Below, in pieces: positions 5,416 to 57,743 of a DNA stretch of 64,000 bases. Origin of the DNA: a virus. Numbering within the stretch: the first letter of the stretch is position 1; each line of letters opens with the position of its first letter. The stretch spans positions 32,001 through 96,000 of the IMG/VR virus record IMGVR_UViG_3300013947_000002. One strand, 5' to 3'. Under the pieces are notes generated by a model. It saw only the letters and a program-made list of their open reading frames with translations, did no database searches and was not told the origin of the DNA. A program made the position numbers and the translations under genes.

Positions 5416-6426
5416 CCTTTAATACCGTCTCTTTCGAGATACTTTAACACCACTCTAAGCGGTCGGAGTAGACTATCTCTTCATCTCAATGAGATGGATG
5501 GCACTTCGCAAGTAGGAATTTCACCTACAAGCTACACTGAAAACAGTTAGTCGTTACAGCTTCAAATGTTTGATATTTTAATTTTCTTGATAACCAAATA
5601 TCCAATCCTTATGGGTTTTATTTCGTCCGTGTAACACTCTGTCAATACAGGAATAACTTAAATTGCGGTCTTTTGCAAAATTTCTAATATTCACAAATTC
5701 TACATATTCGCCAGTTTTTAAGTTTCTTCCCCAACACGCCTTTTCGTGCGCCCTAGATGAATTGTCATGCAGGGTGAGCCATCTACAATTTTCTGGACAA
5801 TAATCACCATGTGGATTTATTCTGTCGATAGTCAAATCTTCTTGATAACCATTGGATAACGCCCAATCTCTGAATGTTTCATAAGAATTTAACCACTCGT
5901 CACAAACCGTAATACCCTTTGCTCCATAATCCGCATAGCTACGAACGTTAGGATTATAGCAACGCGACTTCATATTTGACCACGTCCTATAAAGTTTGCT
6001 TCGATTGCCAACTATCGCACCACCAGACTCTCCATGACGAGTTTTGTTCTGATGAACTCTCTCAAGTCTTAAACATCCACAAGAACGAATTGGTTTATAC
6101 TGCTGGACTAATTTGTATTTAACAACCTCGACAATGTTGCCGCAATCACACTTGCATACTACAAGTAATTTACCTTCTTTATTTCTTTTGTCTGGTAATT
6201 CAACAACCGTCAATTTTTCAAATTTATCGCCTATCTTAATTTCATTTGATCTCACACCTAAACCTCCTTTCTTTTATGATAACATCAAACATTCGCTTGC
6301 CACGGTATTGCCATGCGCTCATGCGTTTAGGGTTTTACCGTTAGCACGGCATATGCCGCACACCCTACATTTGTAGGTTCACCATCATTCACATCATATG
6401 TCACCATATGAGTGGACTATCGTTTA
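5416..6426 (-). mobile_element. group I intron with homing-endonuclease ORF, inside the RNA polymerase gene
   Basis: Minus strand carries gctaacggtaaaaccctaa (P3-P4 like), the R element taacGACTAactg and the S element agaTAGTCtactcc (P7 pairing GACTA/TAGTC). The 3' end ggtattaaagg matches the thyX intron end gggtataaagg. P1 is weak (gat/gtc). Confidence 0.7.
5578..6255 (-). CDS. intron-encoded homing endonuclease (HNH-related DRID...NCRW family)
   Basis: GTG start 7 nt after aaggagg. KLYRTWSNMKSRCYNPNVRSYADYGAKGITVCDEW...LTIDRINPHGDYCPENCRW. Paralogous to 37310..38005 and 58639..59334. Confidence 0.75.
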   Translation of the reverse strand: MRSNEIKIGDKFEKLTVVELPDKRNKEGKLLVVCKCDCGNIVEVVKYKLVQQYKPIRSCGCLRLERVHQNKTRHGESGGAIVGNRSKLYRTWSNMKSRCYNPNVRSYADYGAKGITVCDEWLNSYETFRDWALSNGYQEDLTIDRINPHGDYCPENCRWLTLHDNSSRAHEKACWGRNLKTGEYVEFVNIRNFAKDRNLSYSCIDRVLHGRNKTHKDWIFGYQEN

Positions 6427-9509: not shown

Positions 9510-9722
9510 ATGCCACGAACAAAGAAAATTAACCCGCGCGTCCAATATGGCGACACTAGCTGGATTGTCAATGATTGCGGCAATGGGCAATTCGAGCTGT
9601 ATAATACCAGCACCAAACAAATTCCAGCAAAGAGTAATAATCCACTGGATTTTGATAAATATATTGACAAAATTTTTGGTAAGGAGGCGGCTAAGAATGT
9701 TCGAGATTTTCAAGCTGAATAA
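9510..9722 (+). CDS. hypothetical protein (70 aa)
   Basis: First ORF after the promoter, with SD gaggtg upstream of the ATG. Confidence 0.5.
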   Translation: MPRTKKINPRVQYGDTSWIVNDCGNGQFELYNTSTKQIPAKSNNPLDFDKYIDKIFGKEAAKNVRDFQAE

Positions 9723-10857
9723 GAAGAAGAAAGAGCTTGAAGGGCAGATTTCCAAATTAGAATCAACTATTGCAGAGCAACAAGAGAATATTTCTTACAC
9801 ACAGCTCAACATCGATATGTTGCACAAAGAAGAAAAGAAAGCACAATCTGCCGCGCTTCAAGAACAGAACAACTTAGATATTCTTGAAAACAAAATCCAC
9901 GCTATCGAAGAAATGCAGGATTATAACATCCCATATTATCAGGATTCGCTTGATGAACTTGAACATCGCCGCTATGAACTACAGAGCAAGATTGAATTGG
10001 CTGTGAATACTGGTCTGTATCGCATCGAACAAGGATATACGCTCAATGGCTCTGACAGGCGCGGCAAGGAAATGCAGGACGTATATGGGCGAGGACTGGT
10101 TTGCAGTTGCAACGCTTATATTGACAGCAAAGAAAAATCGCTGACAACAGGCAATATTGCTAAAAGCAAAGAATTGATTAAGAATAAATTTAATTCTTAT
10201 CAGTCCAAAGCCGGTAAGGTCGGCTTGGCGCTTAATGCTGAATATGTCAAGGCGCGACTTGATATGTTTGATGTCAATTTGGCCATCAAGGTTAAAAAGA
10301 AGGAAGAAGCAGCTAAGATTAGAGAAGAAAAGCGGCGGCTTAGAGAGCAAGAGCAATTGTTGGCTGATATTGCTAGAGAACGCGCCAAGCTGATTGAAGA
10401 AAAGAAAGCAATGAATATTGCATTTAGCAAGGCATTGACAGATGATGAGCGCAATGAGATTAAGGCTCAGCTTGCTAGTATTGATAAGCGACTTGATTCT
10501 ATTGCATATCGTGAAGCACATAGTAAAGCTGGTTGGCTATATGTTATTAGCTCGCCCAGCTTGCCCGGATTGACCAAAATCGGTTGCACGCGGAGATTGG
10601 TACCAATGGTGCGCGTGAAAGAATTATCAAGTTCCTCGCTCCCGTCACCATTTGTAGCTCATTGCTTTGTATTTAGTGATGATTGCTTTGAGCTTGAATC
10701 GCAGATGCACAAATATTTTGACAAAGAGCGAGTCAATCCTGATAGAGAATTTTTCCGCATTGAGCCGAAAGAGGCCATTGAGGTGCTAAGAGAAATTTTT
10801 GACGTTGATGTCCATTTTGTAGATGAAGATTGTGAAGATAATGAGGAGGATAAATAA
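9697..10857 (+). CDS. DUF4041-like coiled-coil protein with C-terminal T5orf172/GIY-YIG-like domain
   Basis: Start at ATG 9697 behind aaggagg. C-terminus GWLYVISSPSLPGLTKIGCTRR...RVKELSSSSLPSPFVAHCFVFSDDCFELESQMHKYFDKERVNPDREFF matches the T5orf172 pattern. Confidence 0.75.
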   Translation: MFEIFKLNKKKKELEGQISKLESTIAEQQENISYTQLNIDMLHKEEKKAQSAALQEQNNLDILENKIHAIEEMQDYNIPYYQDSLDELEHRRYELQSKIELAVNTGLYRIEQGYTLNGSDRRGKEMQDVYGRGLVCSCNAYIDSKEKSLTTGNIAKSKELIKNKFNSYQSKAGKVGLALNAEYVKARLDMFDVNLAIKVKKKEEAAKIREEKRRLREQEQLLADIARERAKLIEEKKAMNIAFSKALTDDERNEIKAQLASIDKRLDSIAYREAHSKAGWLYVISSPSLPGLTKIGCTRRLVPMVRVKELSSSSLPSPFVAHCFVFSDDCFELESQMHKYFDKERVNPDREFFRIEPKEAIEVLREIFDVDVHFVDEDCEDNEEDK

Positions 10858-27256: not shown

Positions 27257-27285
27257 TTGACAAATCGCCGCTGTGGTGCTATACT
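27257..27285 (+). promoter_or_regulatory. sigma70-type promoter
   Basis: TTGACA 27257-62, 17 nt spacer, TATACT 27280-85. Confidence 0.65.
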
Positions 27286-27314
27286 TAAACCATCAAATAA
27301 AGGAGCTGAATGAT

Positions 27315-28151
27315 ATGAACGAACTATTTATTATGTCGCTTAAAGCAAAGCATCGTAGTGAGGGTACCATTCGCGAATATACCAAGGCGATCGAGAACTG
27401 CTTGTCGTATGTCAAGAAGCCTGAAACCGACATCAAGCCGATTGACCTTGAGTTGTGGCAGTCCAGCATGAGCAATCTTAGCTCTGCATCCGTAGCACAG
27501 CGCACATCGGCTGTTCGCGAGTATTTCAAGTTCTTGTATCGCAATGAATTTATCAGTCGCAATCCTGCTGATATGCTTGAAGCGCCGAGTATCAAGAATC
27601 GTGAGCAGTCGGCTCTTGATGGAGAGCAGGTCAGAGCGATGATTAACGCCGCAACAAATCTGCGTAACAAGGCGATTATTACGATGCTGGCTCAGACCGG
27701 TCTTCGCATCCATGAGCTTGCCAATATCACGCTTGAGCAGTATCAGAGCCGCAATGGTAATGTGTTGGTCATTCGTGGTAAGGGTGATAAGGATAGGCTG
27801 GTTGGCCTGGCTGATGAGACGATCAAGCTGATTGATAGCTATATTGCTAATGAGCGCAAAGACGGCTGCGAATACCTGTTCGTCGGCAATCGCGGCAATA
27901 AGATGGACGGCAAGAACACCAGTGCTATGCTCAAGGTGTGCGCTAAGAAGGCTGGTATTGAGAATTGGGAGGAGTTGCATATCAGCAATCATACGATGCG
28001 CCGCACGTTTGCTACGATGATGTCCGAAGCCGACGTACCTATTGAGATAATTAGTAAGGCAATGGGGCACTCAGGTTTGGCTATCACGTCCAGATACATC
28101 AAGCGCACCGAGCAGAGAGCGGTCAATGCTATGGCTGTTATGAGTTTTTAA
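27315..28151 (+). CDS. tyrosine recombinase/integrase (XerC/XerD-like)
   Basis: ATG 27315 behind aggag. GLRIHEL (Arg), HTMRRTFAT (HxxR), GHSGLAITSRYI (His...Tyr). Confidence 0.85.
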   Translation: MNELFIMSLKAKHRSEGTIREYTKAIENCLSYVKKPETDIKPIDLELWQSSMSNLSSASVAQRTSAVREYFKFLYRNEFISRNPADMLEAPSIKNREQSALDGEQVRAMINAATNLRNKAIITMLAQTGLRIHELANITLEQYQSRNGNVLVIRGKGDKDRLVGLADETIKLIDSYIANERKDGCEYLFVGNRGNKMDGKNTSAMLKVCAKKAGIENWEELHISNHTMRRTFATMMSEADVPIEIISKAMGHSGLAITSRYIKRTEQRAVNAMAVMSF

Positions 28152-45106: not shown

Positions 45107-45163
45107 TTGACAATCAACCTCCTTTGTGGTATAATCGCTATATCAACAATAAGGAGGTTGATT
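45107..45163 (+). promoter_or_regulatory. nested terminator/promoter/SD-hairpin cassette
   Basis: TTGACA 45107-12, 17 nt spacer, TATAAT 45130-35. Perfect 13 bp inverted repeat aatcaacctcctt (45112-24) / aaggaggttgatt (45151-63). The right arm contains the SD and is followed by TTTTATTT. Confidence 0.65.
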
Positions 45164-45169
45164 TTATTT

Positions 45170-46057
45170 ATGAGAGTATTATCGTTATTTGATGGGATTG
45201 CCTGTGGACGGTTGGCATTAGAAAGAGCTGGTATTAGAATCGATTCATATGATGCTTGGGAGATTGAAAAGAACGCAATTAAAGTCGCGGCGACCAATTA
45301 TCCAGACATTATAGAACACGGCGATGTAACAAAACAGGATTTTACAAAATATAAAGACAAGGTGGATTTGCTTATTGGAGGTTCGCCTTGTCAAGGATTC
45401 AGCTTTTCAGGTAGAATGCTGAATTTTAATGACCCTCGTAGCAAACTCTTTTTTGAATTTGTCAGAGCCATTGAAGAATGCAAGCCCAAATACTTTTTAC
45501 TTGAAAACGTTGTGATGAAACAGGAATGGCGAAACATCATTTCATCATATCTTGGAGTTGAGCCAATTGAAATAAATTCAGCACTTGTATCAGCTCAAAA
45601 TCGACGCAGATTGTATTGGACTAATATACCGAATGTAAATCAACCAAGAGATAAAAACATCAAACTAATTGACATTCTTGATGATAAATCAATGCTTAAT
45701 CCGGCCGCTATTCGTGGTCGTACAATTGTTGGGTATAATAAGAATACTGTTCAATGTCTTGAGGTTAGGTCTAAATACACTGACAAATCAAATTGTTTGA
45801 CAACCGTTGATAAGGACAATGTATTAACATCATTGTCACATGGTAGATATATTGACGTATTTAACAATACTTATCCGTGGCGATACTATACCACTGCGGA
45901 AATGTGTAGGTTACAAACATTGACAGATGATTATCTTAATATGATACCTGATAGCGCAGCGAGAAAAGCGCTTGGGAATGGATGGGCAGTGGATGTAATC
46001 ACACATATCTTCAGTTATTTACCAGATAAATATAAGATTGGAGGGGAGAAAGATTAA
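45170..46057 (+). CDS. dcm: C5-cytosine DNA methyltransferase
   Basis: LFDGIACG (I), GGSPCQGFS (IV), LLENV (VI), SAQNRRR (VIII), GNGWAV (X). Confidence 0.9.
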   Translation: MRVLSLFDGIACGRLALERAGIRIDSYDAWEIEKNAIKVAATNYPDIIEHGDVTKQDFTKYKDKVDLLIGGSPCQGFSFSGRMLNFNDPRSKLFFEFVRAIEECKPKYFLLENVVMKQEWRNIISSYLGVEPIEINSALVSAQNRRRLYWTNIPNVNQPRDKNIKLIDILDDKSMLNPAAIRGRTIVGYNKNTVQCLEVRSKYTDKSNCLTTVDKDNVLTSLSHGRYIDVFNNTYPWRYYTTAEMCRLQTLTDDYLNMIPDSAARKALGNGWAVDVITHIFSYLPDKYKIGGEKD

Positions 46058-46775
46058 AATTCATCCACTACTAGATTCCCTTAATGAAGCCACATTTTTA
46101 CGAGCATATTTACGTGTCTGTGGTATAGATGATGTTGATGCTTATCTGCATCCAGATAAGATTGAATATCAAAGCCCAGATATGTATAAGAATATGGATG
46201 TGGCTGTACTGCTACTTAAACAACATCTTACAAAAATGAGTAGAATCGCAGTTTTGTGCGACGAGGACGACGATGGCCTGTGTTCATGCGTTATCATTGC
46301 AGATATGCTTAAGCGGCTCAATGCTGAATATCGTATCTTCTTCCATACGGTTGCAAAGGCGCACGGTATTAGAGCCGACTCATCTGATAAGGTGCTGGAT
46401 GATATTCTTGAATATGCGCCATCTCTACTTATCATCCCAGACGCAAGCGCAGATAGAGAATCATGCCAGACGCTCAGAGAGCATGACTGTGACGTGCTTA
46501 TCCTAGACCATCATCTATATGATTTTTCAAATAATCCATACGCAGTTATTGTGAATTGTCTGCAACAGAGCGATACTAATCAATCAGCAAGTGGCGCATT
46601 GATAGCAAGCAAATTCGCCAATACCGTTCTGGGCAACGATAAAGACGAATATGCCGACCTTGTAGCCATGTCGCTTATTGGTGATGTTATGGATTTACGC
46701 GACCTAGAGAATAGAGCCTATATCAATCAATGGCAAAGAGATTATGAGAAGGCGGTGAGCAAGCCGAATGAATGA
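46038..46775 (+). CDS. DHH-family phosphoesterase, N-terminal (DHH) half of a RecJ/NrnA-like protein
   Basis: CDEDDDG and ILDHH motifs. Ends inside a (GAAT)3 repeat. Start uncertain (TTG 46038 or ATT 46053 after ggagg). Confidence 0.7.
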   Translation: MEGRKIKIHPLLDSLNEATFLRAYLRVCGIDDVDAYLHPDKIEYQSPDMYKNMDVAVLLLKQHLTKMSRIAVLCDEDDDGLCSCVIIADMLKRLNAEYRIFFHTVAKAHGIRADSSDKVLDDILEYAPSLLIIPDASADRESCQTLREHDCDVLILDHHLYDFSNNPYAVIVNCLQQSDTNQSASGALIASKFANTVLGNDKDEYADLVAMSLIGDVMDLRDLENRAYINQWQRDYEKAVSKPNE

Positions 46776-46777
46776 AT
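46766..46777 (+). repeat. (GAAT)3 tetranucleotide repeat at the DHH/DHHA1 ORF junction
   Basis: ccGAATGAATGAATtttt. It holds the stop of ORF 1 and the ATG of ORF 2. Removing one unit fuses the frames (PNEFLTYMVEK). Confidence 0.85.
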
Positions 46778-47703
46778 TTTTGACCTATATGGTAGAGAAG
46801 TTGGGCAAAGGTAGGCCGCCCTCTCCAACAAACGTGTCTTGGAACGTTGTGCCCAAGATTAACGCCGTTTTCCGAAATGGTACACAAGATGATAGGGCTG
46901 TGCTGATTGACGGCTTTATGGGCAACGTAGAGCCTGAGACGGCTATTAAGGTTGCTACTCGTTGCCATAGTAAACAAACGCGAGAGGTCAAAGCGCTGTT
47001 CGATTCGGCTATTAACAATCTCAACATTTATAAAAATTGCGTCGTAGCAATGATTAATAATAAACACAAAGAATATACTGGTCTATTGGCTAATAAGCTA
47101 ATGTCCAAATATAATAAGACTGCATTTGTGTTTAGAAAATTAGACCCATGCACTCTATCAGGTAGTTATCGCTCGCCTGTTGATATTATTGATTTACTCA
47201 ATGATAGCGGCTTAATCAAAGCGCAGGGTCACGGTTGTGCCGCTGGTTGCTTCTTGAAGGTGTCAAATGCCAAGCGATTCGTCAAGTGGTTTGACGAACA
47301 ACAGATTGATATGGCTGGCGTTGTTGAGGTTGCGGCAAGTATTGAACCAAGTCAAATTACACACGCGCTATGTCAAATTTGTGTGGACAATGAAGGCTTG
47401 TTCGGACAGGGGTGCCCCAAGCCACTATTCCATTGTACTTTAACAACTCCACAGATTTATGTATATCGTAATCGCTCAACTACTGTCAAGCTGATTCAGG
47501 ACGGCATTGAGTTCATTAAATTCTTTGTTAACAATGAAGAAGTAAGTCAGTTTGAGGCGGCACAGGGCAAATCCATAGAGGTTGTGGTATCTCTTGGATT
47601 GAATGAATATAATGGGCAAATTAAGCCGCAAGCAATAATCGAGCGATATGAAATTGTAGATAAGAAAAACGATGAATTTGATTGGGAAAGGATTTTTCAA
47701 TGA
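46768..47703 (+). CDS. DHHA1 half of the RecJ/NrnA-like phosphoesterase
   Basis: VVPKINAVFRNG linker motif. QGHGCAAG (GGGH-like DHHA1 motif). Confidence 0.7.
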   Translation: MNEFLTYMVEKLGKGRPPSPTNVSWNVVPKINAVFRNGTQDDRAVLIDGFMGNVEPETAIKVATRCHSKQTREVKALFDSAINNLNIYKNCVVAMINNKHKEYTGLLANKLMSKYNKTAFVFRKLDPCTLSGSYRSPVDIIDLLNDSGLIKAQGHGCAAGCFLKVSNAKRFVKWFDEQQIDMAGVVEVAASIEPSQITHALCQICVDNEGLFGQGCPKPLFHCTLTTPQIYVYRNRSTTVKLIQDGIEFIKFFVNNEEVSQFEAAQGKSIEVVVSLGLNEYNGQIKPQAIIERYEIVDKKNDEFDWERIFQ

Positions 47704-48773
47704 TTTACCTAGAATATGCAGCAACTAATTCATTCACCAAGTATCCGTCTAGCAGGTACGGCCCGTTCTTGAACCCTAATGCCAATTATGCTTACAGAGA
47801 GCAGAAGTTGCTTGATGAATGCAGAGATAGGGTAAAGGCGACTATTGGTGCAAAGAGTGGCAAAGTTATATTTGGTGGTACAAGTAGCCAGTTGATTGAA
47901 AATTTGATGAATCGTGCCAAGCGGAACACGGTAATCTGTTCAAAATACGAGCATGACAGTTTTTGGAGATACGGCTTTGATTCTATTGGAAATATCGATG
48001 AGTTACCAAATATTATTTCTGATACACCAGAAAGCTACGGAAAAATGCTTGTCATGTGGCAGGGTGTGAATAATATCACAGGTCAGATTTTTCCCATTGA
48101 GCAAATCGGCAATATGTGCCACAGCTATAATGCGTTCTTCATCTGCGACATGACGGCCATGATTGGAAAGGTGGCGATTCCTGACAATATTGACCAGTGG
48201 TGCGATATTGCTGTGTGGAGCGGCCATAAGCTAGCCACCGAGGGCGGCATTGGTTGTATGTGGCTATCTGACAGGTTTAATGAATGGCTGGGCGGCTTCA
48301 AGCTACGTGGTACGCCTAATCTGGCTGGGGCTTGTGCTATTGCAGATGCTACAGAGGATGCTTGTCAGAACGTAGATGCACATGAAGAATATTGCTATGA
48401 GCTATATCGCTATTTGCTTGCCGAGCTATCAGCTAATGGTATTTATGGCGGCGTTGTCAACTCAGCTATGAAACCAGACAAATCCGATGCTACAGAAAGA
48501 GCGCCTAGTACGTATGCTATCAATGCTATCATGCTTGACAATATCAATGCCGATAGTCTACAACAGTATCTAGCGTCGCAGTCTATTTATATTGGGATTG
48601 GTGGCTCTGCCTGTTCGAGCCTACATGATTTTAGAGTGCTTAATGCTTGCGGCTTGACAAATAATGAGGCAAGCAGAGTTATTAGAGTATCGTTTGATTA
48701 TGATACGGATAAGCAAGATATTGACGATTTGGTGTATAATATTAAACAATATAAGGAGAAGTTTGTAGGATGA
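47700..48773 (+). CDS. NifS/IscS/DndA-type cysteine desulfurase (PLP, class V aminotransferase fold)
   Basis: IYLEYAATN, VIFGGTSSQ, SKYEHDS, VNNITGQIFPI, WSGHKL (PLP Lys), LRGTPNLAG, GIGGSACSS (catalytic Cys loop), IRVSFDYDTDKQDID. ATGA overlap upstream. Confidence 0.85.
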   Translation: MIYLEYAATNSFTKYPSSRYGPFLNPNANYAYREQKLLDECRDRVKATIGAKSGKVIFGGTSSQLIENLMNRAKRNTVICSKYEHDSFWRYGFDSIGNIDELPNIISDTPESYGKMLVMWQGVNNITGQIFPIEQIGNMCHSYNAFFICDMTAMIGKVAIPDNIDQWCDIAVWSGHKLATEGGIGCMWLSDRFNEWLGGFKLRGTPNLAGACAIADATEDACQNVDAHEEYCYELYRYLLAELSANGIYGGVVNSAMKPDKSDATERAPSTYAINAIMLDNINADSLQQYLASQSIYIGIGGSACSSLHDFRVLNACGLTNNEASRVIRVSFDYDTDKQDIDDLVYNIKQYKEKFVG

Positions 48774-49834
48774 ACCATACAAAGGAAGATTTGAAAGAGC
48801 TACAATCTAAATCTCTTGAAGAAAAAGTACAGATTAGCTTGGCCCGTATTATTGAATGGCATGAACATTGGGATGGTAAGGTGTATATCTCTAATTCTGG
48901 CGGCGTTGACTCTACTGTCCTCAGTCACCTAGTCCATTCCATATATCCCGATGTACCAGATGTGTATTGTGATACTGGGCTTGAATATCCTGAATTACGC
49001 GATTTTATTATGAGTAAGCCAAATGTGGTTGTTCTAAAGCCTAAAATGAATTTTGTTGAAGTAATTAAAAAGTATGGTTATCCAATTATTTCAAAAGAGG
49101 TTGCATCTGTTATATCTCAAGCACGAAAAGGCAATAATTGGGGGTTGCATAAAATAAATGGGAAGAAAACAAATGGGCAAGACGATGCCTATGGAAAAGC
49201 TATGATGAAGTGGAAGTTTCTACTTGATGCCGATTTTAATGTTGATAATTATTGTTGTAAGGAAATGAAGAAAAAACTTGCGTATAAATATGAGAAAGAA
49301 AGTGGGTTAAAAGCGTTTGTCGGTACGATGACAGATGAGTCATTATTAAGAAAAACGGAATGGCTAAAACATGGCTGCAATGCCTTTGATGGTAATCGTC
49401 CAATTTCGACTCCGCTATCATTTTGGACTAAATCCGACGTACTGCATTATATTGTCAAATATAACATCCCATATGTCAAAGAAATCTATGGTGACATCAT
49501 AGAAAAAGATGGTGTATATACCACAACCAAACAAAAGCGCACAGGTTGCATTTTCTGTGGCTTTGGTTGCCATCTTGAAAAAGAGCCAAACAAATTCCAA
49601 ATATTAGCTAATATCAATCCTCATCTCTACGACTACTGTATGCGTGGCGGCAAATACAACGAATCTGGCATGTGGATTCCTGACAAGGGACTTGGTATGG
49701 CTAAAGTGTTAGATTATATCAATGTCAAATGGTGGAACGATGGCGATGAAGCCAAGCGAGACGACTATAGAGCAAAATATAAGGAGAAAGAAAAAATTGA
49801 GCAGAGCAGAACGCAACCGCCGCAAGAAGATTGA
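48770..49834 (+). CDS. PP-loop ATPase of the PAPS-reductase family (DndC/SspD/IbrA-like)
   Basis: YISNSGGVDSTVL (PP-loop), PLSFWTKSDVLHYI, RTGCIFCGFGCH Cys cluster, long C-terminal extension. ATGA overlap with the desulfurase. Confidence 0.8.
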   Translation: MNHTKEDLKELQSKSLEEKVQISLARIIEWHEHWDGKVYISNSGGVDSTVLSHLVHSIYPDVPDVYCDTGLEYPELRDFIMSKPNVVVLKPKMNFVEVIKKYGYPIISKEVASVISQARKGNNWGLHKINGKKTNGQDDAYGKAMMKWKFLLDADFNVDNYCCKEMKKKLAYKYEKESGLKAFVGTMTDESLLRKTEWLKHGCNAFDGNRPISTPLSFWTKSDVLHYIVKYNIPYVKEIYGDIIEKDGVYTTTKQKRTGCIFCGFGCHLEKEPNKFQILANINPHLYDYCMRGGKYNESGMWIPDKGLGMAKVLDYINVKWWNDGDEAKRDDYRAKYKEKEKIEQSRTQPPQED

Positions 49835-49979
49835 GCGACCACTAAAATATGCGCCTATTCATTGTCCGGATTGCGGACTAGTCGTAGATGAAAAATATAT
49901 TGTTGATATTAACTCGACTTGTCCTATTTGTGGTAAAGAGCTATTTGGCGCACTAAAAGAAATGATGAAAAATAATTAA
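49797..49979 (+). CDS. small zinc-ribbon protein
   Basis: TTG start 10 nt after aaggag. CPDCG...CPICG. Confidence 0.4.
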   Translation: MSRAERNRRKKIERPLKYAPIHCPDCGLVVDEKYIVDINSTCPICGKELFGALKEMMKNN

Positions 49980-49987
49980 ATAACCTA

Positions 49988-50042
49988 TTGACAACCTCCT
50001 GTTCATGTGATATGCTTATGGTACAAATTGAACAGGAGGTTG
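49988..50042 (+). promoter_or_regulatory. nested promoter/SD-hairpin cassette
   Basis: TTGACA 49988-93, 17 nt spacer, TATGCT 50011-16. 14 bp inverted repeat caacctcctgttca (49992-50005) / tgaacaggaggttg (50029-42), with the right arm containing the SD. Confidence 0.6.
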
Positions 50043-50049
50043 TTTAATT

Positions 50050-50298
50050 ATGAAATTTTATATCCATCGCACATTGAATTGTGAAACCGCAGATCAACTT
50101 AGACGTATTTACCCGATCCTCAGCTATTATGTTATGCACGATGAAAAGATTGGTTGGCTTGGAAACATGGGTGCTTGTATTGAAATCAATTCTTTTAAGA
50201 AGCTGATTGAATTGAACAAGACAACAAACCACCCCATTATCATTGATGTAAACGATGAAATTCCGACCATTGAAATCTATGACGATTGGAGGGAGTAA
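50050..50298 (+). CDS. hypothetical protein
   Basis: Track ORF. Confidence 0.5.
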   Translation: MKFYIHRTLNCETADQLRRIYPILSYYVMHDEKIGWLGNMGACIEINSFKKLIELNKTTNHPIIIDVNDEIPTIEIYDDWRE

Positions 50299-50566: not shown

Positions 50567-50667
50567 GAGCCGCATTTCTAAACAAATTTCGGAGGTATTG
50601 AATAATGCGTTATATGGGCGGAAAGAGCCGAATCAGCAAGCAGATCGCGAATGTGCTGAACGGCGCA
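50553..50667 (+). repeat. tandem codon-diverged duplication of the Dam N-terminal motif, in two frames
   Basis: 50553-50609 encodes YMGGKSRISKQISEVLNNA. 50611-50667 encodes YMGGKSRISKQIANVLNGA. The 58 nt offset shifts the frame by +1. Confidence 0.85.
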
Positions 50668-51345
50668 ATGAGAGAGAGAGAGAGAGAGAGAGCATTCGTA
50701 AGCCTGTTCTGTGGCTCATGCGCCATTGAGTCAAAGGTACAAGCAGACGTTAAAATCCTCAATGACAAGCACTCCTATCTCATTGCTATGTGGCAAGCGT
50801 TACAGAATGGCTGGATGCCACCTGATGTAGTGACCAAGGAAGAATATTATCACGTTAAAGCCAATATGGACGAAGACCCTGCTTTGACCGGATTTGTCGG
50901 CTTTGGTTGCTCATTCGGCGGCAAATGGTGGGGTGGCTATGCTAAAGATAAACGTGGCGATGATTACTGCGGTCAGGCAAAGCGCAGCTTGATGCGCAAC
51001 TATGTGGGTAAAGCCAAGTCTACTTTACAAAAAGATTTATCTGGTCTACAGATCGCTACATTCACTTGTCTTGATTATAAAGATGTAGAAATCCCAGATG
51101 GCGCGGTTGTATATTGTGATCCACCTTATGCAAACACAACGGGTTATACATTAGGCAAATTTGATACAGATGAATTTTGGGATTATATGCGCCAGCTATC
51201 TAAGCGATGTGATGTATATATCAGTGAGGAATCCGCGCCTGATGATTTTGAATGTGTCTGGAGCAAAGAGAAAGTAAGGACGCTTGAAAAGAGCGACAAT
51301 GTGAGTCGCGTCAAAGTAGAAAAATTATTTAAGTGTAAAGGTTAA
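50605..51345 (+). CDS. dam: Dam-type N6-adenine DNA methyltransferase (D12 class) with an internal (AG)11 tract
   Basis: MRYMGGKSRISKQI, FVSLFCGSCAIE (motif I-like), VVYCDPPYA (DPPY). SD ggagg 50591-95. Confidence 0.85.
   Translation: MRYMGGKSRISKQIANVLNGAMRERERERAFVSLFCGSCAIESKVQADVKILNDKHSYLIAMWQALQNGWMPPDVVTKEEYYHVKANMDEDPALTGFVGFGCSFGGKWWGGYAKDKRGDDYCGQAKRSLMRNYVGKAKSTLQKDLSGLQIATFTCLDYKDVEIPDGAVVYCDPPYANTTGYTLGKFDTDEFWDYMRQLSKRCDVYISEESAPDDFECVWSKEKVRTLEKSDNVSRVKVEKLFKCKG
50671..50692 (+). repeat. (AG)11 dinucleotide repeat inside the dam CDS
   Basis: Direct count: agagagagagagagagagagag, translated as RERERER. Confidence 0.95.
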
Positions 51346-54665: not shown

Positions 54666-55530
54666 AAACACAATTCTGCCTCCCTGTGCAGTAATGCACA
54701 GTAAAAAATTCTGTGAACCTATAAATATAGGGTGTGGTTTTGACGTTTAGTAGTTATAGGAAATGATAATTAACAAAACCGCTAACGGGGAAACCTAAGT
54801 CAATACGATATGGCAATCCCGTGGAAAGTTGCTTGGTTTAAGAGAAAAAATAAATAAGAGAGGAGGATTCAATGTGAATCATGTAGAAATTTCAGATTAT
54901 CCGGGTTATGAAATTTTTGAAGATGGTCGCGTGTTTTCAAAATATACAAACAAGTTTCTAACATCAAAGATTGATAGATACGGATATAGCGTATATCATT
55001 TAAGACGTGGTAAAAATGAATTTCCAACAGCGCATAGATTGGTTGCGTTGGCATTTATTCCCAATCCGAATGGTTTTCAATCTGTAAACCATAAAGATGG
55101 AAATAAACAGAATAATAATAAAGACAATCTTGAGTGGTGTTCTGAATCATATAATAGTTGGCATAAATGCAACATCCTTAATGAGAAACCAATCAGATAT
55201 GGAGATAAACAAGTTGTGGCTAAAAATACAATAACTAACGAAGAGATATTGTTTAATTCAGAATCTGATGCTGCGATATTCTTTAATGTATCACAAACAA
55301 CTATCAGTCGAAAAATTTTGACCAAACATATTACACCTAAAAGATGTAAGACACAAAATTGGCTGTTTGAATTTAAGTAACTCAAAAACTCTTAAACCAA
55401 GTAAAATCTCTAACGACTATCCATAATGGAGTACAGCATAAGCGAAATTCTTATGTTGGAAGTGCAGAACCCCAACAAATAGTTGGGTGAAGATATAGTC
55501 TAAACTATTATGAAAATAATAGAATCAATG
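54666..55530 (+). mobile_element. group I intron 1 in nrdJ, with HNH endonuclease ORF
   Basis: P1: exon ggaggT pairs with the IGS Gcctcc (54678-83), with U.G at the splice site. gctaacggggaaacctaag. R tctaacGACTAtcc, S aagataTAGTCtaa. Ends in G. The splice restores AGG|GIGYAFSNL. Confidence 0.8.
54874..55380 (+). CDS. intron-encoded HNH homing endonuclease (NUMOD4-HNH-HTH type)
   Basis: GTG start 7 nt after ggagg. ISDYPGYEIFEDGRVFS, VNHKDGNKQNNNKDNLEWCSESYNSWH, C-terminal FFNVSQTTISRKI. Confidence 0.8.
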   Translation: MNHVEISDYPGYEIFEDGRVFSKYTNKFLTSKIDRYGYSVYHLRRGKNEFPTAHRLVALAFIPNPNGFQSVNHKDGNKQNNNKDNLEWCSESYNSWHKCNILNEKPIRYGDKQVVAKNTITNEEILFNSESDAAIFFNVSQTTISRKILTKHITPKRCKTQNWLFEFK

Positions 55531-56032
55531 GGAATTGGATATGCGTTCAGTAATCTAGCCCCCAATGGCTATAAGACGCGCAATGACGCTATTGCATCTG
55601 GCCCAGTTAGTTTTATGGATGTATTTAATGCTCAGACAGCTACGGTGCAGCAAGGTAGCAGGCGCGGCGCAAACATGGGTATGCTCAGTGTGTATCATCC
55701 TGACATCCTTGAATTTATACGCGCCAAGTCTGCAACTGAAGGACGGCTTAATCATTTTAATCTATCCGTAGTTGTAGATGATGCTTTTATGCAGTTAGTC
55801 ATTGCCGATGGTCAAGTTCAGTTGCATTGGCCTATTTATGATGAAAAGGGCAATAAGTTACCACCAGCCAAGTGGGATAAGCAGTTTACCAAGCTAGTGC
55901 CAGCTCGTGATATTTGGAATGAAATCATGAAGATGGCATATGATAATGGTGAGCCGGGCGTATTCTATGAGGATAATGCTAATAACCGCAATCCTGCATG
56001 GTATGTAGAAAGAATTGTATGCAGCAATCCGT
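55531..56032 (+). CDS. nrdJ: NrdJ exon 2
   Basis: GIGYAFSNLAPNG...GPVSFMDVFN...SRRGANMGML...RIVCSNP, then 1 nt of the Cys codon. Confidence 0.8.
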
Positions 56033-56202
56033 TAGCCGTATAAACGTGCGGATGTAAAATCTCCTCTGATTGACTTGGACGCTGAATACACAGCTACAAG
56101 GGGCAAGGGTAATGCTAGCCTGAACGACTAAGCGAGGAGACCCCAAGGGGATGCGATAGTCTAGCGCACGATGTGAAATGTATTTGATACACATTGTGTG
56201 AG
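56033..56202 (+). mobile_element. ORF-less group I intron 2 in nrdJ (short; 3' boundary less certain)
   Basis: P1: exon atccgT pairs with Gcggat (56047-52), with U.G at the splice site. R gaacGACTAagc, S gcgaTAGTCtagc. Ends in G at 56202. The splice gives SNP-C-AEYL and creates the catalytic Cys codon t|gc. Confidence 0.65.
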
Positions 56203-57743
56203 GCGCTGAATATCTAGCAGGTACAATCAATTCAATCGGCCCGTCGCAGTATGGCGGTGCTTGTAACCTCGGCTCATTGTTCCTTCATAATTTTGTTCGT
56301 AATCCATTTACTAAACAGGCACATCTTGATACTGAAGCCCTACGCGATACAATTTCTATTGCTGTCCGTATGCTTGATGATATTATTGATGTCAATAAAT
56401 TCCCCGACAAGATTTATGAGAATTATCAGAGGGGTATGCGCACCATTGGTATTGGTATTACAGGTCTAGCTGATATGCTTGCTATGCTAGGCATGAAGTA
56501 TGACAGTCAAAAAGCAAGAGATTATGTTGAATCTCTAATGCAAATGATTACAAATGCTGAATATTATGCCTCTGTGCAACTTGCTAAAGAAAAGGGTTGT
56601 TTTCCTCTGTGTGAGCCCGACAAGCATATTGACGGCGCATATGTCAAGGACGTCCTAGAAAAAGACGTACTCGATGAAATGGCCGAGTACGGTATTCGCA
56701 ATGCCAAGATTCAAGCCGTTGCCCCATGTGGCACAATCTCTATAGTATTCGGGAACAACTGCTCTAGCGGCATTGAGCCGATTTTCTCTCTGAGTTATGA
56801 CCGCAAGGCAAAGATTGGCGGTCAGGATGATAAGGATGTCAAAATCGTCAAGATGATGGACTACGCTTATTATCTATATCATAAGCTGAAAGATGAAGGC
56901 AAGCTCCTAGATTTTGATGAACATGATATTTTCCCAACCGCTCTCAATATGTCTGTTGATGACCATGTAGCTATGCTTGCCATTATTAGCAAATACACCG
57001 ACATGAGCGTTAGCAAGACAATCAACGTTCCTACTGAAGCATCGTTTAATGAAGTCAAGGACATTTATATGCAATGCTGGGAAAAAGGCATTAAGGGTTG
57101 CACCATCTTTAGACCTAATGCTATTCGTCAGGGCATTTTGCTGACTGATAATAAGCAAGGCGAAGAAAAATCTGAATCGATGGAACCACCAACTCTCCCT
57201 CGCGGTTCAATCATCGAGCCAAGCAATGACCTGATTGGCAAAAAGCGCAAGATTCAGACAGGATGTGGCAGCTTACACGTCATCGGCTTCTTTGACCCCA
57301 TTGATGGCAGTCTACAAGAGGTATATTTCAACAAAGGCTCGACAGGCGGATGCCAGAATTTCATGGTTGGTCTGAGTCGCGCAATCAGCCTACTATGCCG
57401 TGCCGGTGTAGATATTATGACCATCAAAGACCAGCTTGATTCAACAGGTGTATGCCCCTCTTATGCTACGCGCAGAGCAACCAACCATGATACCAGTAAG
57501 GGGTCTTGTTGCCCCATGGCTATTGGCAATGCTCTAGTTGATATGTATAATGAGATGCAAGCAGAGCTAGATGATAAAGAGGATGACGATAAGCCGGTAA
57601 AGAAAGTACCGATTAAATCCGAGATTGGCAAAGTAAACGTATTAAATACGAACAATGGTGTATGCCCTGAATGTGGCGAACCGCTTGTGTTTGAGGGCGG
57701 TTGCTGCACCTGTAAGTCATGTGGATATACAAAGTGCGAATAA
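56203..57743 (+). CDS. nrdJ: NrdJ exon 3
   Basis: YGGACNLGSLFLHNFV...TGLADML...APCGTISI...C-terminal Cys cluster CPECGEPLVFEGGCCTCKSCGYTKC. Confidence 0.8.

Follow-up and report, generated by a model that had tools for sequence, protein, structure and literature searches.

Adjacent genes for a cysteine desulfurase and a PAPS-reductase-fold PP-loop protein in uncultivated gut phages: a candidate minimal sulfur relay for nucleic acid

A 64-kb stretch of DNA from an uncultivated gut phage (IMG/VR record IMGVR_UViG_3300013947_000002; hereafter the window, to the whole of which all coordinates refer) carries two adjacent genes, one encoding a cysteine desulfurase (CD) and the other a PP-loop protein with the fold of a PAPS reductase (PAPSr). 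We propose that their products form a minimal sulfur relay, running from CD to the PP-loop enzyme, that thiolates nucleic acid, probably the DNA of the phage itself, as an anti-restriction measure; we put the probability of this reading at roughly 0.4. The original prediction for this region, made by a model from the letters alone, had envisaged a larger module in which a split DHH/DHHA1 phosphoesterase was coupled to the two sulfur proteins. Its four consecutive open reading frames (ORFs), their motifs and their overlapping junctions are all real, and a sulfur-insertion core that recurs between phages is plausible, but no module of three or four genes survives comparison with other phages. 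The best explanation is that the functional unit comprises two genes rather than three or four.

CD is encoded on the plus strand at 47700..48773 (357 residues from its ATG) and matches Aminotran_5 (1.6e-25), SspA (1.5e-29) and DndA (3.5e-28). In a hidden Markov model (HMM) alignment, His85, Asp150, Lys177, Cys305 and Arg329 correspond to His104, Asp180, Lys206, Cys328 and Arg354 of Escherichia coli IscS, the lysine and cysteine belonging to the SGHK and GGSACSS motifs, respectively; across 72 members of the family, some of them as little as 29% identical, none of these catalytic residues varies. The best Foldseek matches of its AlphaFold2 model (pLDDT 93.5) are Nfs1, IscS and NifS (E ~1e-22, TM 0.77–0.82). 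Judged by its residues and predicted fold, CD is a catalytically complete type I (IscS/NifS) cysteine desulfurase, in agreement with the earlier assignment. It falls far below every curated equivalog cutoff, the best being NifS at 98 bits versus 531 (DndA: 53 versus 480), and it belongs to a distinct, short (~335–365 residues) and phage-restricted clade, with ~85 clusters at 50% identity and E ≤ 1e-30. Among 185,579 species representatives of cellular genomes (GTDB) there was a single match, on a 98-kb contig binned in a metagenome-assembled genome (MAG) of the Eubacteriales, in which the arrangement is that of CD without PAPSr. Among isolate phages, tblastn with CD gave nothing beyond ~25–27% matches, and the records concerned, labelled as 'phages' of Staphylococcus and Listeria, resemble host contigs. 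Scanning IMG/VR with the single CD protein gave no matches; the scan used here was seeded by a 13-sequence alignment, a 72-sequence alignment being too divergent as a seed.

PAPSr (48770..49834, plus strand; 354 residues; SNSGGVDS and CIFCGFGC motifs) matches PAPS_reduct (6e-13) and, over residues 8–300, the phrog_424 profile (2.2e-40); its homologues in isolate phages are 25–51% identical. The AlphaFold2 model (pLDDT 90.6) adopts the PAPS/APS-reductase fold in its N-terminal ~250 residues, this being the span of the Foldseek alignments. The 4Fe-4S APS reductase 2goy is the best match, followed by CysH structures (2goy, 6vpu and 1sur at E ~1e-7, TM to target 0.56–0.65), and the sulfurtransferases TtuA (E 8.5e-5, rmsd ~16 Å) and LarE are also significant matches. 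Other searches were less specific: PDB sequence searches aligned the PP-loop region alone, fold matches in BFVD carry 'PAPS reductase' labels only, and tblastn against plasmids gave only generic 'PAPS reductase family' genes. Within the PP-loop, SNSGGVDS aligns to SSSFGIQA of E. coli CysH and keeps the canonical ATP-pyrophosphatase sequence; Ser43, Gly44, Gly45, Asp47 and Ser48 are invariant or nearly so across the family. Additionally, the Cys162–Cys163 dyad, Cys203 and the Cys260xxCys263 pair are 100% conserved in 78 phage homologues at 43–82% identity, and Cys290 is 92% conserved in the same set. The description of a PAPS-reductase-family PP-loop protein is therefore upheld, with a true PP-loop and Fe–S-type cysteines by sequence; overall, PAPSr looks like an ATP-dependent sulfurtransferase rather than a CysH, with cysteines predicted to hold a [4Fe-4S] cluster and to carry a persulfide.

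The names attached to this family invite quite another explanation, namely, that the locus is an auxiliary metabolic gene (AMG) set for sulfate assimilation, with PAPSr producing sulfite as a PAPS/APS reductase of the CysH type, by-product pAp being removed by the DHH protein, in the spirit of the pAp link of the original prediction, and cysteine being handled by CD. CysH and APS reductases supply the names in Pfam, PHROG and NCBIfam as well as the best PDB folds, the CC...CxxC spacing resembles the 4Fe-4S site of APS reductase, and the virome literature usually reads phage PAPS reductases in this way, even where authors find that puzzling. However, the SGGxDS loop of PAPSr is invariant and of the ATP type, whereas that of CysH is degenerate; the C-terminal ECG[LI]H motif of CysH is not conserved in the PAPSr family consensus, the nearby Cys267 (in a GCH motif) being just 53% conserved in the 78 homologues; the protein bears a C-terminal extension of ~100 residues; and it falls far below every CysH cutoff, scoring 31 bits against the CysH model versus a cutoff of 154. 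Moreover, the DHH protein has an OB fold and is a RecJ rather than an NrnA or a CysQ, there is no further sulfate-pathway gene, and a desulfurase uses up cysteine instead of making any. We consider sulfate assimilation extremely unlikely.

The association of the two genes recurs well beyond the window. Searches were anchored on each gene in turn and the partner was sought by tblastn, the loci (identified below by L numbers, where needed) extending 10 kb to each side of the anchor. CD adjoins PAPSr in 11 IMG/VR contigs, as well as in ENA/Logan contigs, on at least four different backbones; the order is mostly CD then PAPSr, and PAPSr then CD in L019 and L022. The distance between tblastn match ends is −31 to +34 nt, such that the ORFs abut or overlap, except for a single lineage in which it is 949 nt; that lineage aside, the two genes are always neighbours when both are present within the fetched loci. 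The adjacency spans backbones of 29–99% DnaB identity and at least four flanking contexts: RecJ-CD-PAPSr-zinc ribbon, the arrangement of the window, which close ENA/Logan relatives keep with 4-nt overlaps; DnaB...CD-PAPSr-primase; zinc ribbon-PAPSr-CD; and CD-PAPSr-PolIII. Such recurrence, across contexts and in both orders, is hard to derive from insertion at a common hotspot alone. Purifying selection acts on both genes (dN/dS, the ratio of nonsynonymous to synonymous substitution rates, is 0.10–0.21). The coupling to a desulfurase is confined to a group of uncultivated gut phage contigs of ~50–124 kb, mostly 80–100 kb, and our literature search found no paper describing a phage desulfurase–PAPS-reductase pair.

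In bacteria, the closest parallels lie in DNA phosphorothioation. The DndA–DndC system likewise encodes a NifS/IscS-type desulfurase beside a PP-loop enzyme of PAPS-reductase fold. DndC is described as having a PP-loop, a 3-Cys 4Fe-4S site and a Cys dyad (PMC10853773), and the motif inventory of PAPSr appears to fit that description. The SspA–SspD and BREX type 4 (BrxP) systems share the same pairing, and the best PADLOC matches of CD are SspA and DndA. Furthermore, the desulfurases of the Dnd, Ssp and BREX-4 systems are optional beside their PAPS reductases, since IscS can substitute (PMC12914056, PMC12839542), and the phage desulfurase is similarly dispensable. In BREX-4, the newly noted desulfurase is accompanied by a gene for a small zinc-finger protein (PMC12839542), and a small zinc-ribbon gene likewise lies near CD; however, the phage gene persists without CD or PAPSr and is not a specific partner of either. 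What the original prediction described, a core like DndA–DndC or SspA–SspD that lacks the usual partners, thus agrees with a pair that recurs in divergent phages and with the partners' not being found in the ORFs scanned.

Several findings nevertheless weigh against the relay that we propose. Some of these concern PAPSr itself. It has no DndC model match at E ≤ 0.01 in NCBIfam or PADLOC, and is presumably ~150 residues shorter than DndC. Its only matches among phosphorothioation systems are to BrxP (2.3e-6, residues 16–79 only) and SspD (8.9e-5, residues 40–82 only), which are limited to ~45–70 residues around the PP-loop, and there is a weak match to QueC (7e-4). By sequence, then, PAPSr lies outside the known phosphorothioation enzyme families DndC, SspD and BrxP; unlike the phage enzyme, BrxP is said to be without a Cys dyad (PMC12839542). 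A DNA-binding domain is not recognisable in PAPSr either. The known phosphorothioation systems depend on two kinds of partner, a P-loop ATPase (DndD, SspC or BrxC) and a protein that targets DNA (PMC12914056), whereas we found no DndD/E, SspB/C (DUF4007) or BrxC partner, either within the operon or in the large ORFs of the window that were scanned against Pfam, PHROGs and PADLOC, the small ORFs being scanned in part. The ABC/SMC ATPase DndD is thus missing along with DndE and DndB, and there is no PglZ or BrxL with the phage pair; moreover, the phage genes sit in a replication operon, and the desulfurase forms a separate clade. PAPSr does not have the features of the IbrA-like regulators, with which an exclusive grouping had been raised as an outcome unfavourable to sulfur transfer: IbrA combines PAPS_reduct with a C-terminal DUF3440 domain and works with the ParB-like IbrB, whereas there is no DUF3440 match in PAPSr and no ParB gene in the operon (ParB_N–methylase fusions do neighbour other family members).

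The remaining adverse points concern linkage. Only 9 of the 30 CD-anchored IMG/VR loci have PAPSr within 10 kb; in the other 21, CD is followed by a gene for primase, PolIII α or a 147-residue zinc-ribbon protein. PAPSr-anchored loci have CD next door in 10 of 24 cases and are without CD in 14, and among 80 wider PAPSr loci (40–82% identity), CD is nearby in four and missing from 76. The co-occurrence that had been expected of related phages is, therefore, borne out in the 11 contigs with neighbouring genes and fails in most of the loci of either gene. Moreover, clean variants with a single gene are found on near-identical backbones: in seven close relatives (L011–L017; DnaB ~88–97% identical), as in L026, RecJ is followed by PAPSr within ~25–190 nt and there is no CD; L039 has RecJ, CD, a different gene in the PAPSr slot and then the zinc ribbon; and L043 and L054 match L042 except for a precise lack of PAPSr. 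Either gene can thus be dispensed with by itself, and their pairing is not obligate. The identities of the two partners are also discordant (97% for CD and 59% for PAPSr in L005; 31% and 82%, respectively, in L009), and we conclude on that basis that they do not co-evolve tightly. Indeed, the window PAPSr is 59% identical to its counterpart at 6071–7147 of L005, while the flanking RecJ, CD and RecD are 91–99% identical and the downstream Dam 72%; PAPSr is exchanged between near-identical phages like a methylase allele. Finally, because most CD loci are without a nearby PAPSr, and because a further copy of CD lies beside the ribonucleotide reductase (RNR) gene of one genome, CD probably has a role that is independent of PAPSr. 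The copy in question (L040, 18667–19704) is a divergent paralogue (36% identity) directly after a class II-type RNR, in a genome that also has a CD–PAPSr pair.

These same linkage data, together with the lone CD of the single MAG match, favour an explanation in which the two proteins have independent jobs. CD would provide a general supply of sulfur or Fe–S clusters to the replication and nucleotide module, feeding Fe–S enzymes of host or phage, or host thiolation, whereas PAPSr would serve separately in anti-defence or DNA modification, ordinarily with sulfur from host IscS or without any sulfur; the two would share an accessory-gene hotspot, and CD would at most help to load the PAPSr cluster. 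Such an arrangement does not readily account for the near-constant spacing of the genes wherever both are present, in several contexts and both orders, nor for a PP-loop and cysteine inventory in PAPSr that is that of sulfur-inserting enzymes. It is the foremost alternative, and we judge it somewhat unlikely.

The loci with a lone CD, ~70% of the total, have features of their own (L041, L043, L044, L046, L047, L049–L056, L058–L061, L063, L065 and L066; also L033, L036 and L148). The gene lies between those for DnaB and primase or PolIII α, sometimes with start/stop overlap with primase, and there is no PP-loop partner within 10 kb. In L046 (11212–11655), L049, L056, L058 and L059, a double-CxxC zinc-ribbon protein of 140–149 residues, which has no Pfam match, is encoded directly downstream of the lone CD; the same type is found directly upstream of the reversed PAPSr–CD pair in L019 and L022 (7564–7986). 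This protein may be a third, lineage-specific companion.

In the relay that we favour, CD would take sulfur off free cysteine with its pyridoxal phosphate, carrying the resulting persulfide on Cys305, and would hand it to the adjacent PAPSr, whose Fe–S cluster it would probably also build. PAPSr, in turn, would use its canonical PP-loop to adenylate a substrate oxygen with ATP, and would then swap the adenylated oxygen for sulfur through the [4Fe-4S] cluster and the Cys–Cys dyad. The likeliest substrate would be nucleic acid, probably the phage's own DNA, receiving either a phosphorothioate-like change to the backbone or a thio-base. The mark would be self-protective and anti-restriction, analogous to those of the orphan methylases of the same operon. 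Phages without CD would draw their sulfur from host IscS/NifS, and RecJ and the zinc-ribbon gene would be co-transcribed neighbours from the replication module.

DNA seems the likelier target because of the genomic company that the PAPSr family keeps and because of a precedent for anti-Dnd activity. PAPSr is a clear member of the phrog_424 'PAPS reductase / cysH AMG' family, which is represented by hundreds of contigs in IMG/VR as well as by phages of Clostridium, Ruminococcus, Enterobacter and Vibrio; unlike the window gene, most members have no adjacent desulfurase and lie beside terminase, portal, ParB-methylase or Mom genes. In isolate phages, the gene is situated between terminase or portal genes, and in the 80 wider loci the neighbours include a ParB_N–N6_N4 methylase fusion (14 loci), single-stranded DNA-binding protein (11), HNH (10), C5 methylases (8), the terminase small subunit (8) and Mom (6). 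The family thus keeps the company of DNA-modification and anti-restriction genes. Genes of the Mom family (DNA adenine hypermodification) lie directly upstream of the PAPSr homologues in these six loci, for example, at 730–1485 of L136.

The precedent comes from Vibrio crassostreae phage 44E38.1, in which a two-gene block, consisting of p0018 (a PAPS-reductase-domain–Dam fusion) and p0019, is reported to let the phage evade the Dnd system of its host (Piel et al. 2022; preprint 10.1101/2021.05.05.442762). By description, p0018 resembles the present system in that a phage domain of the PAPS-reductase family is physically tied to DNA methylases, in its proposed anti-restriction role, and in the swapping of the gene between close phages like matching alleles; it differs in that the domain has 175 residues and is joined to a methylase, and in that the phage encodes no desulfurase, whereas PAPSr is a free-standing enzyme of 354 residues with a desulfurase of its own. 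Additionally, PAPS reductases were found in Aca-regulated anti-defence operons in a 2026 survey (PMC13551039).

A relay of this kind might instead act on RNA. In the Bacillota, dedicated pairs of desulfurase and PP-loop genes for tRNA thiolation are the norm. The phage pair could, by analogy with YrvO–MnmA (s2U34), NifZ–ThiI (s4U8) and IscS–TtcA/TtuA, thiolate tRNA or other RNA and so tune phage translation, while CD-only phages would feed the thiouridylases of the host. Those systems also set a dedicated desulfurase by a PP-loop ATP pyrophosphatase and insert sulfur via adenylation, as proposed for the phage pair, and TtcA and TtuA use a 3-Cys [4Fe-4S] cluster such as is predicted for PAPSr. 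Moreover, the host is probably a member of the Bacillota (see below; the MAG match is in the Eubacteriales), PAPSr, which has no DNA-targeting partners, is a single protein of the size of TtcA/TtuA and matches TtuA significantly in structure, and CD-only genomes would be accounted for. However, PAPSr falls in the PAPS-reductase branch of the PP-loop proteins and has no TtcA, TtuA, MnmA or ThiI HMM match, the sole related match being to TilS_N (0.0027), and the superposition on TtuA is poor, given the rmsd of ~16 Å. RNA-binding domains such as THUMP or PUA are missing from it, the window contains no tRNA genes, and the neighbours of the family are DNA methylases, Mom, ParB and terminase, rather than translation genes. 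We consider RNA a distinctly unlikely target.

It is also conceivable, and in our view very unlikely, that PAPSr thiolates or adenylates a small molecule, be it a component of the nucleotide pool, a cofactor (as LarE does) or a signalling nucleotide used in defence. Sulfur transferases of the LarE type are among its significant structural matches, it has no recognisable nucleic-acid-binding domain, and the gene stands alone in many phages; yet cofactor-pathway partners are missing, the family is found with DNA-modification genes, and the published anti-Dnd phenotype points to DNA.

The third component of the supposed module, the DHH/DHHA1 protein, belongs elsewhere. It is encoded on the plus strand in two overlapping ORFs: the N-terminal half (46038..46775; 245 residues) contains the DHH domain, with DEDDDG and DHH motifs (DHH 4e-10; phrog_2484 1.3e-43; TIGR00644 recJ 1e-26), and the C-terminal half (46768..47703; 311 residues) contains DHHA1, with a GHGCAAG motif, and a RecJ OB domain (DHHA1 1.7e-4; RecJ_OB 2e-8; phrog_2484 4.4e-47; recJ 1.4e-29). 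The two halves cover positions 17–226 and 251–545 of the RecJ equivalog model, and the domain order, DHH, DHHA1 and OB, is that of RecJ. An NrnA-type pAp hydrolase or nanoRNase, as suggested previously, is rejected because every significant match falls in a RecJ family and the OB domain is present; the protein is best regarded as a RecJ-like ssDNA exonuclease that belongs to the replication module and lies outside the sulfur pair. It shares with bacterial RecJ the DHH motifs, DHHA1, the OB domain and surroundings of replication and recombination genes, and differs in being divided into two ORFs, both under strong purifying selection. In four relatives (L003, L004, L008 and L036), RecJ is a single ORF of 510–555 residues.

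The halves meet at ATGAATGA (46768–46775), where they overlap by 8 nt with a +1 frame change. The identical junction, ATGAATGA, is found in L005, L006 and L011, the split being kept in no fewer than four independent assemblies, and both halves have a dN/dS of ~0.08 (0.084 in the N-terminal half) at dS 0.37–0.53. On these grounds, a pseudogene or an assembly error is rejected, and the split RecJ is judged to be a functional two-piece protein. In L008, the CD of which is 91% identical to that of the window, RecJ is unsplit and very divergent (44–54% identity), which indicates an allelic replacement. RecJ is next to the CD–PAPSr pair in one lineage only and lies away from it elsewhere; with synteny breaking outside that lineage, and with CD-only and PAPSr-only variants on near-identical backbones, a fixed trio or quartet is rejected as the unit.

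Within the window, the pair forms part of what reads as a single tight transcription unit, extending on the plus strand from a C5 cytosine methyltransferase gene to a zinc-ribbon gene. It is headed by a consensus promoter of the sigma-70/sigma-A type (45107..45135, plus strand; TTGACA-17-TATAAT, 12/12, with an extended TG), upstream of the C5 methylase (45170..46057; Pfam DNA_methylase 5.7e-39). RecJ and CD overlap at an ATGA at 47700, as do CD and PAPSr at 48770, by 4 nt in the latter case, and the overlapping ORFs are presumably translationally coupled. The last gene encodes a small basic zinc-ribbon protein (CPDC...CPIC; plus strand). The earlier assignment of such an ORF at this position was correct; the longest ORF runs from 49722, whereas translation most likely begins at TTG 49797, behind AGGAGA, giving 60 residues (49797..49979) as called in relatives. 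It was considered, and rejected, as a pair-specific partner, since it is kept both in relatives without CD (L011–L017) and in those without PAPSr (L039 and L043). Across the operon, dN/dS versus a relative is 0.08–0.20, i.e. its genes are under purifying selection.

A strong hairpin (49990..50041, plus strand; −27.6 kcal/mol, z = −5.4) closes the unit. Its 3′ arm holds the GGAGG Shine–Dalgarno sequence of the next ORF (ATG 50050; window 49988–50052), and it overlaps a promoter-like TTGACA-17-TATGCT; the hairpin may be a terminator or may exert translational control over the downstream small genes. Beyond it lies a Dam-type (D12) N6-adenine methyltransferase gene (50605..51345, plus strand; MethyltransfD12 4.5e-17). 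The block is thus flanked by two methylase genes, as had been stated, both of them supported by domain matches. These methylases are variable cargo rather than fixed parts: the C5 methylase is missing from the same position in the close relatives L005–L008, and an N6_N4_Mtase occupies the Dam position in L003.

More broadly, the window encodes DnaB, a DnaG-type primase, PolIII α, an MBL/β-CASP nuclease, RecD2, a class II-type RNR and dUTPase, and represents a replication and nucleotide module of the phage. Its PolIII α has its nearest counterparts in phages of Clostridioides and Bacillus, from which a host among the Bacillota seems probable. No match to the region was obtained by megablast in 50,697 phage records. 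Three further features were observed. An ORF at 9547–10857 (plus strand) matches models of the anti-phage defence protein PD-Lambda-1 (3.5e-43) and PDC-S57, a defence-type gene aboard the phage. The gene for the RNR large subunit is in pieces (54829–57743), 55510–56043 and 56277–57743 being consecutive parts of the barrel domain, with an HNH endonuclease ORF at 54829–55380; relatives have one RNR gene of 797–812 residues, and the fragmentation is probably an interruption by an intron or a homing endonuclease. Finally, a tyrosine recombinase/integrase (phrog_1, 8.7e-52) is encoded at 27273–28151 (plus strand), in the middle of what otherwise looks like a large lytic phage.

Phage 'PAPS reductase' or cysH genes are among the most often reported viral AMGs and are routinely read as evidence of sulfate assimilation. 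As the pairing with CD is otherwise known from bacterial DNA phosphorothioation, the present findings suggest that these common phage proteins serve to add sulfur to nucleic acid and not to assimilate sulfate. Their place would be that of an ATP-dependent sulfurtransferase in the restriction arms race, given the invariant ATP-type PP-loop, the cysteines of Fe–S and persulfide type, the coupling to CD, and the company of methylase, Mom and ParB-methylase genes. A bolder version, which we regard as rather unlikely, would have a stand-alone PAPSr, fed by phage CD or host IscS, constitute a one- or two-protein system for DNA thiolation that dispenses with DndD/E, SspB/C and BrxC; phrog_424 would then be a family of anti-restriction enzymes, and the lone CD clade would mark an unrecognised need of phage replication for sulfur. 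That clade, phage-restricted and found alone in replication modules, is of value in itself. The variants with both genes, with CD only and with PAPSr only, on near-identical backbones, provide natural controls for the mapping of modifications in metagenomic long reads. If the proposed function is correct, many AMG claims would need re-annotation, and the pair would represent a minimal system for the enzymatic insertion of sulfur into nucleic acid.

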